Assembly: GCA_041652815.1 (NCBI GenBank)
Contig: JBAZGN010000003.1
Span: forward strand, 129,530 to 193,529
Reading direction: 5' to 3'
DNA: 64,000 nucleotides
Source: Candidatus Omnitrophota bacterium
GTDB lineage: Bacteria; Omnitrophota; Gorgyraeia; Duberdicusellales; 4484-171
This document shows positions 12,277 through 48,350 of the stretch, one piece after another. Every line of letters begins with the position of its first letter. The first letter of the stretch is position 1. The translations under genes and the position numbers were made by a program. A model generated the notes under the pieces. That model did not search any database, was not told the DNA's origin, and was given only the letters and a program-made list of their open reading frames with translations.

Positions 12277-12310
12277 CTAAATACTACCTTCTTAGGTATT
12301 GCAAAAAACC

Positions 12311-13030
12311 ATGAAAATTACTACCCGCGAGAAAGAAGACGTCGTTATACTTGATTTGGAAGGAAGCATTGATATCAATTCTTCGGATTTCGTAGAAACC
12401 GTAGGATGGGCCCTGGTTACAAAATCCAAGAATATACTGTGTAATTTTGAAGGAATAAACCTAATCGATTATGTCGGTATATCGCTGATTGCGGTTGCTT
12501 ATAAAAACATTCTAAACCATAAAGGCAGAATGAAACTTTGTAACGTGCCTTCTCATGTACAAAAGTTATTTTCAATAGTAGGCCTGGATAAAGTATTTAC
12601 TTACTATGAAAATGAGGACGAAGCCGTAAAAAGCTTTACAGAAGAAGTATTGTTCTCACACATTCTTGAACAGAGGCTTCGCCGGCGGTTTAAACGTATA
12701 CCTTTACATAACATTATCGAGTATAAACAAAAATATTCAACGAAAGATGTTTTCTACAAGGGTAGAATAATCAATTTAAGTGCCATAGGTGTATTTATAG
12801 CCGCAGAGAAAGTATTTTCGATAGGCGAAATACTTACCACGCGCATAGATTTAACCCCTGCGCCAGGAGTCATCGAGGTTGACTCCAAGGTTGTCTGGGA
12901 ATCCGATAACGAAATCCAACCTATGGAATCTCCGGGTATGGGGCTTGAATTTTGCAACATAAGCCCCAAGGTCCAGGAACAAATTATAGATTTTGTAGAA
13001 AAACACCTTACGCATAGCTCTCAGGAGTAA
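12311..13030 (+). CDS. STAS-domain anti-sigma-factor antagonist fused to a C-terminal PilZ domain
   Basis: N-terminal MKITTREKEDVVILDLEGSIDINSS is a SpoIIAA-like STAS fold pattern. C-terminal RRRFKRIPLH...GRIINLSAIGVFIA is PilZ-like (RxxxR...D/NxSxxG). The ORF-track start at 12299 is a TTG. Confidence 0.6.
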   Translation: MKITTREKEDVVILDLEGSIDINSSDFVETVGWALVTKSKNILCNFEGINLIDYVGISLIAVAYKNILNHKGRMKLCNVPSHVQKLFSIVGLDKVFTYYENEDEAVKSFTEEVLFSHILEQRLRRRFKRIPLHNIIEYKQKYSTKDVFYKGRIINLSAIGVFIAAEKVFSIGEILTTRIDLTPAPGVIEVDSKVVWESDNEIQPMESPGMGLEFCNISPKVQEQIIDFVEKHLTHSSQE

Positions 13031-14998: not shown

Positions 14999-15027
14999 TT
15001 TACAAAATCCTAAGTTTGTGTTATACT
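14999..15027 (+). promoter_or_regulatory. Near-consensus sigma-70 promoter (TTTACA-17-TATACT)
   Basis: Hexamers at 14999-15004 and 15022-15027, followed by a GT-rich leader of about 80 nt and the RBS of the 15108 gene. Confidence 0.5.
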
Positions 15028-15107
15028 CTTTCTGTGTTTTTTAGTGGTTTTTAGTGTTTTATGGTGTTCTCATAAATCCAAATTACTAAATAAATCAGGA
15101 GGAAGTA

Positions 15108-15320
15108 ATGGCGAGTAAAGCAAAAAAAGGCAGGCCTAAAAAGGTAGTAAAATACACAAAAACGATAAATGTCCGGTTAACCCGGGAACAATGGGTTGAG
15201 ATATTAAACTGGGCAGAAAAGGCCCACCTGGAACCATCCGTATACATACGAAAGATAGTCCTGGATTTTTTAAACATTCATTACAATCCGCAAGGCGTAA
15301 CAACCAGTCCCCAAAAGTAA
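15108..15320 (+). CDS. Ribbon-helix-helix DNA-binding protein, MobC/CopG-like
   Basis: Motif KYTKTINVRLTREQWVEILNWAEKAHLEPSVYIRKIVLDF is an RHH pattern typical of mobilisation or plasmid accessory proteins. RBS AGGAGG. Confidence 0.5.
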   Translation: MASKAKKGRPKKVVKYTKTINVRLTREQWVEILNWAEKAHLEPSVYIRKIVLDFLNIHYNPQGVTTSPQK

Positions 15321-15383
15321 GCTCGAGACGGAAAGATTTAACCCCATTAATAGCAATACCTGAACCCACCAGGCAGAACAAAG

Positions 15384-15409
15384 AGAATGTACCTTGAGAA
15401 TGTACCTTA
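15384..15409. repeat. 13-bp tandem repeat x2 (gagaatgtacctt)
   Basis: Perfect tandem duplication directly downstream of the RHH gene. Confidence 0.7.
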
Positions 15410-15883
15410 CTTCCTATAATATATCTTATGTTAACTTTTATTATTGTCTAAAATCAGCTAATAGCTAATAGGGTCAATCATTTATTGAATTATTATAAAA
15501 AGCTGTGAATTCAAGGCGGGCTTCTTACCTCTATCTATATATTCTTACTTTATGTTTATTACCGTATTCTTCCAAGCCTATAAGAATCCTACCGGAAACT
15601 AGCCTTATAATACCCCTAAATCAGTCAAAATAGCCTCGATTTTAGCTTTAAAATACGGGATAGGGTTTGTCTATGGCGGGAAATAAAAAAGGCCGATAAG
15701 GGAGATTTTCCGATGCAACCCAGCTGCCGTAGCAGCTCCAACTGCCTAGCTTGCTTTGGTCTAAAGCAACGGCTTGTTGTACTACTTTAGGCCTGTGGCT
15801 TTGCGACCCCCGGCTTTCGCGACGGGGTTTACCCTTACCGGCAATTAATATATACAATATATTTTTATTATTTTCAAGTAGGC

Positions 15884-16372
15884 CTAAATTTTGTAGGATC
15901 TTTTCCGTAGACTAAGGATTAAAATAGCAGCTATATAGCTAAGCAGGCCGCAGCAGATTGCAACAACCAAATACCCAAGCATAATAGGCAATATCATTTT
16001 TAAAACTGACATCTTAAATAGCCCTACGAAGGTGAAATCTTTCACGAATAATGACCATTTTTCTTTTATCTCCTGCCAGTTTACCCCTATTATAATTGAA
16101 CCTATTTTTATCGATATTAAAAAAGTTACAAAACTTAGCCAGGTATTTGTAACTAAACTACCAAGTAAGGCTGTTGCGCGATTGGCTCTGGCTAAGGAGG
16201 CTAAAAAGACTGCAGCAATTGGGCCTGTCCCCGGCAGTATGCCCGAAAATACACCTAAGCCAAGGCCTAAGGCAATTTTTTGCGGGGTATCGTTAGTCCG
16301 AACTAATTTTATATATAGTACAGTTATTAATCGTTTTAAACGTTGTAAGTTTATTAAATTTGAAATCCTCAT
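15884..16372 (-). CDS. DUF2062-family membrane protein
   Basis: Segment ALGLGLGVFSGILPGTGP...ATALLGSLVTNTW is a DUF2062 pattern. Confidence 0.5.
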   Translation of the reverse strand: MRISNLINLQRLKRLITVLYIKLVRTNDTPQKIALGLGLGVFSGILPGTGPIAAVFLASLARANRATALLGSLVTNTWLSFVTFLISIKIGSIIIGVNWQEIKEKWSLFVKDFTFVGLFKMSVLKMILPIMLGYLVVAICCGLLSYIAAILILSLRKRSYKI

Positions 16373-17867: not shown

Positions 17868-18233
17868 TTAAAAGATATTTGAAGGTTTCGATATCGAAGT
17901 AAGATAAGACATGAGGCAGCGACGGTCGGTTTCTTTTATTTCGCTAAAGTATATACCAAGACAGTATGATTGTTTACCATTGTCCTGCACGTGTTCGCTT
18001 CGAACGACTACACCCTTACAGTTTATTTTTTTTACGTTTTTATGGTTAGCCTTATTAAGCGGCACAAGCAAAACTATATCAAGTTTAGTCATCGGCGCAA
18101 TAGCTTTGTTTACCGCACAATACGCACCGCTACCACTTATATTTTTGGTTTCTGTAACCAGATCACAGTCAGCTGCACAAAGCTTTAAGGCAAGATTACC
18201 TTCGATGCGGGGATAACTTCTTTTTTCGCTCAT
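17868..18233 (-). CDS. PilZ-domain protein
   Basis: Motif RSYPRIEGNLALKL...KNISGSGAY is the PilZ RxxxR...DxSxxG signature. Confidence 0.6.
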   Translation of the reverse strand: MSEKRSYPRIEGNLALKLCAADCDLVTETKNISGSGAYCAVNKAIAPMTKLDIVLLVPLNKANHKNVKKINCKGVVVRSEHVQDNGKQSYCLGIYFSEIKETDRRCLMSYLTSISKPSNIF

Positions 18234-18414: not shown

Positions 18415-18732
18415 TTACTCTATTATTGAATTAAGATAATTTTTACTCTCTTCAGCTATCTCTACAAATTCTAAACCCGCGGAATACCTCTCAGAAGCCC
18501 TTTCTTTATTGCACCAAACAACTTTTGCTTTCATGCCTAAAACCTTATTTATAAGATTAATATTTAACTTAAGGCAATTATTTTTGGGTAAAAATTCGTC
18601 GCTAAGTATGCGCACCCCGCCTACGCTTAGGTCTTTGCTAACCGTATAAAAATACTCCTTCCCGGGAAGAATATTACATTCTATCGGAAAAGAAATAGGG
18701 CTGCGTGAATTTTTTCTCTTTTCGTCGATCAT
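18415..18732 (-). CDS. PilZ-domain protein
   Basis: Motif RKNSRSPISFPIEC...KDLSVGGV is a PilZ signature. Confidence 0.6.
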   Translation of the reverse strand: MIDEKRKNSRSPISFPIECNILPGKEYFYTVSKDLSVGGVRILSDEFLPKNNCLKLNINLINKVLGMKAKVVWCNKERASERYSAGLEFVEIAEESKNYLNSIIE

Positions 18733-22233: not shown

Positions 22234-23277
22234 TTACAAGAAGGAACGCAAGTGTTTTCTGATGTCTTTCCGGTTAAGAATTTTCAGGAAAATTTCAACT
22301 ATCTGCGGGTCAAATTGCTTACCCATTTGATTACGTAACTCTTTTTCTATCTCCATAAGATGCATTTTTTTTCTGTAAGGCCTGCCAAAATACATTGCAT
22401 CAAATGCATCAAGCAAAGATAGTATCCTTGAGCCCAGAGGTATCTGGTCTTTACTGAATTTTGAAGGGTACCCTTTTCCGTCATACCGCTCATGATGATG
22501 TAAAATTATTGGTATAACCGGTTTTAATATTTCCAAGTCCTTTATCATCTCCACGCCCTTACGCGGATGTTTCATTATTATTTTATATTCCTCGTCGGTA
22601 AGCGGGGTCTGTTTTTTAAGTATCCCTGAGGGGAGTTGAATTTTTCCGGCGTCGTGCAAAAGCGATGCATATTCGAGCGATTTTGTTTCTGATTCAGAAA
22701 GTTTCATTTCTTTACCGATAGCTTTAATTAATTTAAATATACTTTTGGTGTGCAAGTATGAGGTCGGAACATACTGGTCAAGTAATTTTGTGAGCGACTT
22801 TATATAGTTTATCATTAACCTTTTTTCTTCGCGGTAAAGATTAAAAATCCTTAAGGATATGCTTATTTCTTCGGAAAGTGACAAAAACCATTTTTTTTCT
22901 AATTCATTGAATTCCGGGTTATTTGGATTACGTTTAAGATAAACAGCGCCAAGGGCATCGGCAAAAATAAAAGGATAAATCAGGCGGTTTCCGAGCATTA
23001 CTTCCTTCTCCTGATGCAATATTTCTTTCTCCCTGTTGGTAAGTATAGATATGCCTCCCTTTTTAAACGACTGGCTTTTGTCCTCAAGCCGCATCTTCAT
23101 AAACCCCTGGGTGTTAACATTTTTAAATACTACAGTCACTTTATCTGCCAAAAATGCATTTTTATATAACCGGCATATGCCCATTGCAAAATTTTTTATA
23201 TCGCCGGAAGTAGTAATCAGGCGGTATATCGTATGAAATGAAGAAAATATAGTTTTATACTTTTTCATAAGGATCAA
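22234..23277 (-). CDS. HD-GYP domain c-di-GMP phosphodiesterase
   Basis: Motifs HDAGK...HHERYDGKGYP (HD...HHExxDGxGYP). Confidence 0.8.
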   Translation of the reverse strand: MILMKKYKTIFSSFHTIYRLITTSGDIKNFAMGICRLYKNAFLADKVTVVFKNVNTQGFMKMRLEDKSQSFKKGGISILTNREKEILHQEKEVMLGNRLIYPFIFADALGAVYLKRNPNNPEFNELEKKWFLSLSEEISISLRIFNLYREEKRLMINYIKSLTKLLDQYVPTSYLHTKSIFKLIKAIGKEMKLSESETKSLEYASLLHDAGKIQLPSGILKKQTPLTDEEYKIIMKHPRKGVEMIKDLEILKPVIPIILHHHERYDGKGYPSKFSKDQIPLGSRILSLLDAFDAMYFGRPYRKKMHLMEIEKELRNQMGKQFDPQIVEIFLKILNRKDIRKHLRSFL

Positions 23278-46815: not shown

Positions 46816-47331
46816 TCAAAGAGAGTCTCTCTCTTTTTTAAAAATTCCCTTAACCCCGTCGATTATAGTTTTTTTAGGCTTCTCTTTAAGCGGTGCGTGT
46901 CTTTCTTCTTTTCTTTCTATTTCTACGTGCTTTTGTTCTTTTTCCTTTTTATGTATTACTTTCTTTTCCTTTTTCTCTACTCTCGTAAGCTCTATAAGCG
47001 AAATCTTGGAAGCATCTCCCTTACGATAGCCTAAACCGAAAATCCGGCTATATCCGCCGTTTATGTCTTTAAAGCGCGGCGCAATATTATCAAATAATTT
47101 CTTAACCAGCATATGGTCGCAAAGCACTTTGTAAGCAAGCCGCCTGTTTGCTAACGTTGACTCTTTCGCCAAAGATATAAGCCTGTCTATCCAACTGCTT
47201 AATTCTTTCGCTTTTGCTTCACTTGTCTTAATGCGCTCGTAAATTATCAGCGAACGCAGCAACGATTTTTTAAGTGCTTTTCTCTGCGCTCTTGAACGGG
47301 AAAATTTTTGGCTTTTTTTTCTGTGCCTCAT
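46816..47331 (-). CDS. rplQ: 50S ribosomal protein L17 with a charged C-terminal extension
   Basis: L17 core (MRHRKKSQKFSRSRAQRKAL...) plus a Lys/Glu-rich tail. Confidence 0.9.
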   Translation of the reverse strand: MRHRKKSQKFSRSRAQRKALKKSLLRSLIIYERIKTSEAKAKELSSWIDRLISLAKESTLANRRLAYKVLCDHMLVKKLFDNIAPRFKDINGGYSRIFGLGYRKGDASKISLIELTRVEKKEKKVIHKKEKEQKHVEIERKEERHAPLKEKPKKTIIDGVKGIFKKERDSL

Positions 47332-48350
47332 ACTAATTCCAATTTCTTTCTATCTATTTTTACCCCAAGATTAAGCCCCATGGTTTTAAGAAGATTAACT
47401 ACTTCAGTGAGCGATTTCTTACCGAAATTCCGGTAGGATAATATCTCAGTCTCGGTTTTCTCAACCAAGTCAGCTAAAGATTTTATATTCGCCTCCCGAA
47501 GACAGTTTGCGCTACGCACCGAAAGCTCCAATTCTGTTATAGGAATTTTTAATTTCTCATAGAGCGAAACTTCCTCTGGCGTAAGCTCTTCTGTCTCTTC
47601 TTCGGGAATTTCGCCAAGAGTAAAGAAAAGCTCTAAATGCTTGCTTAAAACCTTGGCAGCATAAATTAGAGCTTCTTTTGGCTCTATACTTGCGTTTGTA
47701 AAAATTTCTATAATAAGTTTATCGTAATCCGTTCTTTTTCCAACCCTAGTATTTTCTACTTTAAAAGTGACTCTTTTAACAGGAGTAAAAATCGAATCTA
47801 TCGGAATAACTCCAATAGGCATGTCTTCTCTTTTATTATTCTCTGCAAGAACAAATCCTCTGCCGCGGCCTACTTCCATCTCTATATCAATTTTAGCCTT
47901 CTTTGAAGTAAGCGTTGCGATATGCTGGTCGGGATTTATAACTTCAATACTCTCGTCAGTTGTAATATCCGAAGCTTTTACTTGCTTTTCCCCTTCTACT
48001 TTCAGGGTTATTTTCTTGGGAGATTTGGAATATGACCTTAGAACAACGTTCTTGATATTTAAAATTATTTCCGGAACATCTTCCAGGACCCCTTCAATTG
48101 TAGAAAATTCATGGGAGCACCCTTCTATTTTAACAGAAGTGATAGCTGCACCCTCAATAGAAGAAATAAGCACACGCCTAAGGGCGTTACCCAGAGTAAC
48201 TCCATAACCTCTTTCCAGGGGTTCAGCGACGAATTTGCCATAATTAGGGCAATAGGTTTCTTGCTCAACTGTTATTCTTTTGGGAAATTGGAAATCTCGC
48301 CAGGTTATTCCCATTGTTTTACCTCCTTCAATGAGATAGCATTTTTTCAA
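47328..48350 (-). CDS. rpoA: DNA-directed RNA polymerase alpha subunit
   Basis: NTD and CTD motifs (LGNALRRVLISS...). Confidence 0.92.
   Translation of the reverse strand: MKKCYLIEGGKTMGITWRDFQFPKRITVEQETYCPNYGKFVAEPLERGYGVTLGNALRRVLISSIEGAAITSVKIEGCSHEFSTIEGVLEDVPEIILNIKNVVLRSYSKSPKKITLKVEGEKQVKASDITTDESIEVINPDQHIATLTSKKAKIDIEMEVGRGRGFVLAENNKREDMPIGVIPIDSIFTPVKRVTFKVENTRVGKRTDYDKLIIEIFTNASIEPKEALIYAAKVLSKHLELFFTLGEIPEEETEELTPEEVSLYEKLKIPITELELSVRSANCLREANIKSLADLVEKTETEILSYRNFGKKSLTEVVNLLKTMGLNLGVKIDRKKLELV

Follow-up and report, generated by a model that had tools for sequence, protein, structure and literature searches.

Positions 15,108 to 15,883 of a 64,000-nucleotide stretch of DNA from a Candidatus Omnitrophota bacterium (assembly GCA_041652815.1, contig JBAZGN010000003.1; the whole 64-kb stretch is called the window here) carry a small ribbon-helix-helix (RHH) gene and, behind it, a non-coding region in which a GC-rich block lies between AT-rich flanks. 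We found that this stretch resolves into two recognisable elements and no longer has to be regarded as an unknown non-coding RNA (ncRNA) or as a relic of a mobile element. By its Rfam match and its conservation, the GC-rich block is the aptamer of a c-di-GMP-I riboswitch, a known Rfam class, and it is predicted to bind cyclic di-GMP (c-di-GMP). The AT-rich part is, by prediction, the replication terminus with the chromosome dimer-resolution site dif. We favour, with slightly better than even confidence, the reading that the riboswitch unit is a self-contained, stand-alone c-di-GMP-binding RNA without a gene and not the leader of a protein gene.

An earlier, sequence-only reading of this DNA had singled out the GC-rich block, and the contrast was borne out: the GC content is 0.49-0.53 across 15650-15849 compared to 0.22-0.38 in the flanks. 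A structured ncRNA had been proposed there as one candidate. The block does encode a structured RNA, but the reading had looked at the wrong strand and had not considered riboswitches. When the whole window was scanned with Rfam, the minus strand of the block (15711-15843) matched the c-di-GMP-I (GEMM-I) aptamer family RF01051 with 50.9 bits, above its gathering score of 35 (E = 5e-7 for the whole window), and the match spanned the full length of the model (positions 1-87); an overlapping match from the same clan with a lower score was excluded. No other Rfam family was found between 15000 and 16100 at E up to 1. The fold energy of the whole GC-rich block was unexceptional (z = -1.8).

The aptamer contains both a GNRA tetraloop hairpin and a receptor hairpin. 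Helix P2 (15827-15808, minus strand) is closed by a GAAA tetraloop and corresponds to the ccccg..cgggg hairpin that had been picked out by eye. Helix P3 (15800-15717, minus strand) carries the receptor-like motif CCUAAAG/CUACGG and a 45-nt distal extension, the tip of which is the ttgcttt..aaagcaa hairpin, also seen earlier. A further proposed hairpin, agctgc-cgta-gcagct, is present as a palindrome in the 3' strand of P3 but does not form a hairpin in the aptamer fold. A proximal AUCGG (15710-15714, minus strand), read from the sequence, is a candidate for the 3' strand of a ligand-competent P1 of 5 bp (CCGGU/AUCGG); in relatives this strand is UCGG or GUCGG at variable offsets, and the alignment is gapped here, with register shifts between lineages. 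In the Vc2 aptamer, G20, A47 and C92 contact the ligand, which is bound with a picomolar dissociation constant (Kd), and G at position 20 is found in c-di-GMP sensors while A is found in cyclic GMP-AMP (cGAMP) sensors (PMC6140456). Vc2 numbering was mapped onto the window by hand count; at the positions aligned to these three contacts, the window has G, A and C, which do not vary across the family described below. The window RNA is thus like the Vc2-type c-di-GMP-I riboswitches in its full-length match, P2 tetraloop, P3 receptor-like motif and ligand contacts. It is unlike them in lacking a downstream open reading frame (ORF), in the 45-nt P3 extension, and in its expression platform, which consists of a long-range 11-bp helix between the 5' end of the transcript and sequence past the aptamer, together with a U-run.

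A scan of species-representative genomes with the RHH protein gave 52 loci, and a convergent aptamer at the Rfam gathering level was present in four of them (L001, L006, L016 and L021). A scan of metagenomes with a pattern for the aptamer core, in which the outer sequence was left free, yielded eight further members as well as a divergent one, L082; about 20 ordinary GEMM-I riboswitches also matched the core pattern, each then followed by a terminator or an ORF. The family comprises 12 complete relatives from Omnitrophota genomes and metagenomes plus the divergent L082, and the RF01051 scores of the relatives range from 50.8 to 66.4 bits. A covariance model of the family found no further copies in other dif-bearing Omnitrophota loci or elsewhere in the window. 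The block is kept in relatives whose flanks have diverged, and its helices covary; the earlier reading was to be given up if transcript, covariation and conservation in relatives were all lacking. In the alignment of 13 sequences, 95.7% of the cells were paired, compared to 22-51% in slid controls, and 11 pairs had changed on both sides, compared to 4.0 ± 1.3 in shuffles. Compensatory changes were found in P2 and in distal P3. In the literature, riboswitches of Omnitrophota were found only as incidental mentions. The metagenome contigs also included two from other organisms with tandem c-di-GMP-I aptamers about 175-180 nt apart (L072, 3-23 and 176-196; L075, 2197-2218 and 2379-2400).

The aptamer is preceded by a promoter of its own (15848-15877, minus strand), with the -35 element TTGAAA at 15877-15872 and the -10 element TATATA at 15854-15849, separated by a 17-nt spacer that ends in TG (15856-15855). 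The arrangement TTGAAA-17-TATATA is invariant in all aligned family members despite the diverging flanks, and L082 has a promoter of like design (TTGAAA-N15-TG-TATACT). A generic promoter scanner missed it because a T was required at the last position of the -10 element. From this promoter, transcription would start near 15843-15841. The first 11 bases of the transcript (GCCGRUAAGGG in the family; GCCGGUAAGGG in the window, 15832-15842, minus strand) pair with CCCUUAUCGGC (15692-15702, minus strand), which lies outside and past the aptamer. This 11-bp terminal helix, which we call P0, encloses the whole aptamer. The 5' strand of P0 doubles as that of P1 (CCGGU), and the residues aligned to A18 and G19-G21 of Vc2 lie in it. 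One base past P0 stands a run of six U (15685-15690, minus strand) followed by AUUU, and P0 and this run together form a predicted intrinsic terminator.

P0 is conserved throughout the family. Its 3' strand is invariant in 12 members, and L082 carries CCUUUAUCGGC together with a compensating G-to-A change in the 5' strand. P0 is 100% paired in 13/13 sequences, with one R:U position (A-U or G-U) and one compensatory change, from G-C to A-U, in L082, and it is part of the minimum free energy (MFE) structure of 13/13 members. The linker between the aptamer and the 3' strand of P0 varies in length and sequence across the family, and at least 4 U occur within the first 8 nt past P0 in 13/13 members. 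The order promoter, aptamer, variable linker, invariant CCCUUAUCGGC and U-run is the conserved layout of the family. We infer that P0 and the U-run terminate the transcript at ~15685, which would give an RNA of about 155 nt with paired ends.

The stretch had been described as non-coding, and this agrees with our ORF search: only ORFs of 20-69 aa occur between the stop codon of the RHH gene (15320) and that of the minus-strand DUF2062 gene (15884). On the riboswitch strand, no downstream ORF of at least 30 aa was found as far as the RHH antisense, and no reading frame is open across the family. A small protein-coding gene had been named as the finding that could explain the GC-rich block away. 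However, the 69-aa sense and 54-aa antisense ORFs under the block are interrupted in relatives, where the tblastn matches are split over different frames. A conserved small ORF past the conserved AGGAAG (dif complement) was also rejected, as its start codons and lengths differ at every aligned locus. The unit is an aptamer transcript without a conserved ORF and with its own predicted promoter and terminator, as in merRNA of Bdellovibrio; that no protein gene stands behind the aptamer bears on its role and not on its family membership.

The boundaries of the cassette can be read from relatives that lack it. L004 and L005 have the same synteny (RHH, dif, DUF2062, radical SAM, DUF4416), and exactly the segment from promoter to U-run is absent; they share the sequence downstream of the missing cassette with riboswitch-bearing loci, so that no downstream feature is peculiar to loci with a riboswitch. 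In L016 the cassette is present without DUF2062, and in L082 the unit of promoter, P0, aptamer and terminator lies between unrelated genes. A canonical terminator on the same strand (a 10-13-bp stem and a T-run) follows soon after P0 in L006, L016 and L021, and a second terminator after P0 was seen by eye in L071 and L082. In the eight members without one, which form the window's own clade, the strongest U-run lies directly after P0. Since each lineage has either a second terminator or its best U-run past P0, termination after the aptamer appears to be maintained in all of them. In addition, L016 (3040-3070), L021 (3040-3063) and L082 (1150-1196) contain an extra copy of the 5' strand of P0 (GRUAAGGG or UAAAGGU) before CCCUUAUC. 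This copy folds into a local hairpin, a competitor of P0; the hairpin in L021 was flagged by the scanner as terminator-like. These copies suggest a three-way strand competition in L016, L021 and L082.

The second element lies between the riboswitch and the RHH gene. A dif-type XerC/XerD site, ACTTCCTATAA-TATATC-TTATGTTAACT (15409-15436, plus strand), is identical at 25/28 positions to the experimentally confirmed dif of B. subtilis and has the same 11-6-11 layout (PMC3025954). At up to 3 mismatches it is unique in the window, and 0/100 shuffles matched. The GC skew changes from positive to negative at ~14-16 kb of the window, and the long ORFs are all on the plus strand up to 14950 and all on the minus strand from 15884. 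From the dif match, the switches in skew and gene strand and the uniqueness of the site, we conclude that the AT-rich part is a replication terminus with a XerC/XerD site, as far as can be predicted. In 44 Omnitrophota loci, with or without a riboswitch, a 30-bp block that includes dif (15409-15438) is found on the RHH strand with a conservation of at least 95%. The block contains TATAAT and was at one point considered as a promoter or as the 5' end of an ncRNA; both were dropped on the dif match. No tyrosine recombinase was found among 10 mid-sized window proteins tested.

In the reading that we favour, that of a stand-alone RNA, the promoter at 15877-15849 would drive leftward (minus-strand) transcription of the aptamer, the first 11 bases (GCCGGUAAGGG) would pair with CCCUUAUCGGC to form P0, and the U-run would then end the RNA at ~15685. 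The full P0 and ligand binding would be mutually exclusive, because the residues aligned to A18 and G19-G21 of the pocket and junction are taken up by five inner pairs of the helix (AAGGG/CCCUU). The ligand-bound form would use the short P1 (CCGGU/AUCGG, 15714-15710) or just the outer six pairs of P0. By constrained folding of the 13 members, the fold with a ligand-competent junction lies 7.1-11.4 kcal/mol above that with P0, and the outer 6 bp of P0 still form beside the U-run in the constrained folds of several members. The ligand could pay this cost because, by our own arithmetic, a Kd in the pM-nM range corresponds to ~12-15 kcal/mol. The RNA would always end at the U-run, and c-di-GMP would merely remodel the released RNA, which might buffer the messenger or act as its sponge, or might use its freed 3' segment in trans, as proposed for merRNA. 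We favour this reading because of the second terminators, the exact absence of the cassette from L004 and L005, and the unrelated context of L082.

Several points weigh against it. It is uncommon for a terminator hairpin to have a folded domain of 129 nt as its loop, and such a terminator might work poorly or depend on the ligand. In the eight members of the window's clade without a second terminator, read-through to dif and RHH is possible. The covariation of P0 amounts to one compensatory pair in one sequence, because P0 is almost invariant. The family members are phylogenetically close, and the effective sequence number of the covariance model is 1.27. All dif-adjacent copies are oriented alike toward dif, which could reflect function and not shared ancestry. 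Finally, the proposed transcript ends and ligand binding are predictions from sequence.

Some of these points would fit a transcriptional ON-switch, in which c-di-GMP gates non-coding read-through across the motifs beside dif, dif itself and the RHH antisense. Without ligand, P0 and the U-run would terminate transcription; with ligand, the 5' strand would be held in P1 and the pocket, P0 would be blocked and the polymerase would continue, so that RHH expression, or what happens at dif, would depend on the level of c-di-GMP. The same nucleotides are indeed contested by P0 and the ligand pocket, and the proximal and distal copies of AUCGG look like a strand-exchange design. The convergent RHH gene is just ~365 nt distant. 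A second terminator is missing from all eight members of the window's clade, and the search from 15685 to RHH turned up no strong one, which leaves the antisense path from the expression platform to RHH open in this clade. There are also precedents, namely the C. difficile antisense RNAs RCd11 and RCd12 behind c-di-GMP-I riboswitches (PMC11477304) and an antisense riboswitch case cited in PMC3627812. However, read-through cannot reach dif or RHH in L006, L016 and L021, nor in L071 and L082 as judged by eye, because a canonical terminator follows right past P0. Furthermore, riboswitch-less relatives keep the same downstream sequence, RHH and dif occur without any riboswitch in 40 other Omnitrophota loci, and the outer 6 bp of P0 persist by the U-run in several constrained folds, which favours constitutive termination. 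We regard an ON-switch as possible but doubtful. Two more pointed readings seem improbable to us: that the riboswitch is placed and aimed toward dif for a purpose, with c-di-GMP-dependent read-through across the motifs beside dif, dif and the RHH antisense, or that in a stand-alone RNA the ligand opens P0 and thereby exposes a C/U-rich 3' seed that acts in trans. If the former were true, the resolution of chromosome dimers or the organisation of the terminus would be tied to a second messenger in Omnitrophota. The riboswitch might instead be dormant or co-opted, sensing c-di-GMP without consequence and serving mainly as the 3' end and terminator of the DUF4416/radical-SAM/DUF2062 operon, or it might be a decaying remnant whose original target gene was lost at the terminus. 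There is no other terminator between the DUF2062 stop codon (15884) and P0, the cassette is absent from close relatives, and a conserved dual-terminator riboswitch, Bc1, can fail to regulate anything measurable (PMC11218506). Against this, the promoter, the ligand-contact positions, P0 and the helices are maintained with compensatory changes while the surrounding intergenic DNA has diverged beyond alignment; a plain terminator needs neither an invariant promoter nor an intact aptamer, and L016 has the cassette without DUF2062. We consider dormancy or co-option quite improbable.

As the other candidate, the earlier reading had named an iteron- or oriT-like relic left by a mobile element, and it had called the RHH gene MobC-like. 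The stretch does contain tandem repeats and a site-specific recombination site, and the RHH protein matches a NikA-like Pfam family, PF21983, marginally (27.6 bits against a cut-off of 27). The earlier reading was correct about the repeats themselves: Tandem Repeats Finder reported the 13-bp perfect tandem repeat as GAGAATGTACCTT (2.0 copies, 15383-15408, 100% match) and the gctaata repeat as AGCTAAT (2.3 copies, 15456-15471). However, the 13-bp duplication is private to the window genome, since relatives are single-copy (e.g. L002, GAGAATATACCTT-ACTTCC), and there is no iteron array. The conserved AT-rich element is a dif-type Xer site that is chromosomal, standing at the switch in skew and gene strand, and the neighbours tested include no relaxase, no integrase and no other gene of a mobile element. 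The RHH gene (15108-15320, plus strand, 70 aa, convergent with the riboswitch) is a conserved chromosomal gene of the whole phylum, with 172 homologues of ~60-92% identity, nearly all from Omnitrophota, and 31 invariant columns among 25 diverse homologues. A mobile-element relic is therefore very improbable in our view. The 13-bp duplication adjoins the XerC-side arm of dif and may be a product of replication slippage or the footprint of a Xer-mediated event.

Gene-less c-di-GMP riboswitches are not without precedent. In Bdellovibrio bacteriovorus, merRNA is an ncRNA that contains a c-di-GMP riboswitch, and its authors proposed a role as store or sponge (PMC3627812). Both merRNA and the window RNA are c-di-GMP aptamers without a conserved downstream ORF. 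However, merRNA is 445 nt long and was defined by its massive expression in the attack phase, whereas the window RNA has a predicted length of ~155 nt and is known from sequence alone; the likeness is one of aptamer class, and the sponge role of merRNA is itself unproven. In C. difficile, one orphan c-di-GMP-I riboswitch has no known function, and two others drive the antisense RNAs RCd11 and RCd12 (PMC11477304). These too are c-di-GMP-I aptamers that do not lead protein genes, but they belong to another phylum and to type I toxin-antitoxin loci and have no dif/RHH neighbourhood. In Bacillus thuringiensis, Bc1 has two successive terminators, of which the first is ligand-responsive and the second is intact and masks it (PMC11218506). 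L006, L071, L016, L021 and L082 have a dual-terminator layout like that of Bc1. Unlike them, the window's own clade has the first terminator (P0) only, and unlike the family Bc1 has downstream genes. The riboswitch described here adds a member to a known family, and its gene-less layout, with competition between P0 and the pocket, is uncommon but precedented. Very few gene-less c-di-GMP riboswitches have been reported (merRNA and one C. difficile orphan). The present one is a comparative-genomics case in an uncultured phylum, and it offers a simple, testable design in which a terminal helix rivals the ligand pocket.

The pairing of RHH and dif is a fresher observation than the riboswitch. In 40/52 of the species-representative loci, dif lies downstream of RHH on the same strand, usually within 30-450 nt. 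The site resembles the B. subtilis type in 25/28 bases, the 11-6-11 layout and the switch in skew and gene orientation. It differs from that type in that an RHH gene almost always precedes it and conserved extra motifs flank it. To our knowledge, accessory features such as an RHH gene and flanking motifs have not been described for a chromosomal dif. In the window, the motifs right of dif (15474-15549, plus strand) are TCAATC (15474-15479), CTGTGAATT (15503-15511) and TTCTTAC direct repeats 20 bp apart (15522-15528 and 15542-15548). They stand at fixed offsets in most of the 44 loci, with or without a riboswitch: TCAATC at about +65 from dif, (A)AAACCTGTGAATT at about +95, and TTCTTACYT followed by a second TTACTT 20 or ~30 nt on. 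These flanking motifs may be accessory protein-binding sites; by eye, they gave no convincing fit to sigma-70 promoters on either strand or to a CRP-type palindrome. In many loci, CCCTTAAAGAC occurs ~45 nt left of dif. The RHH protein may be a terminus- or Xer-associated DNA-binding protein. No significant relative of solved structure was found for it (best E = 0.04). These results locate the replication terminus with its dif in these Omnitrophota genomes, where a tiny, highly conserved RHH gene and fixed motifs almost always stand beside dif. Terminus function may thus involve an accessory factor that has yet to be described.

Some minor observations concern the RHH gene. The near-consensus promoter that had been reported for it was found at 14999-15027 (TTTACA-17-TATACT with an upstream TG, 10/12 matches). 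Just downstream of this promoter, at 15034-15068, are 3.5 copies of a 10-bp periodic repeat, GTGTTTTTTA, with the core GTG-N7-GTG. The sequence GTGTTTTTTAGTGGTTTTTAGT is conserved upstream of RHH in many relatives (L001-L003, L005-L007, L009, L016 and L021). We consider this motif a candidate operator for RHH autoregulation. With ~60-92% identity, the RHH homologues are better conserved than the radical-SAM (48-75%) and DUF4416 (45-70%) proteins next to them. In L045, L047 and L049 (1-673), which are from more distant Omnitrophota, RHH follows a 23S-5S rRNA operon whose end is ~750-1270 nt upstream, and a dif was not detected in the vicinity.

On the other side of the riboswitch, directly upstream and on the same strand, lies a gene for a DUF2062 membrane protein (15884-16372, minus strand; Pfam PF09835, E = 6e-23). 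It is the last of the DUF4416/radical-SAM/DUF2062 run, and the synteny is kept in relatives. Farther away, ~32-45 kb from the predicted terminus, the window contains rpoA (47328-48350) and the gene for ribosomal protein L2 (59798-60631), both co-directional with replication; such genes are usually found nearer the origin. Finally, genes for c-di-GMP signalling are found around the riboswitch at 12299-13030, 17868-18233, 18415-18732 and 22234-23277 of the window; this cluster comprises STAS-PilZ, PilZ, a third PilZ-like ORF (judged by eye) and HD_5 (HD-GYP-type) members.

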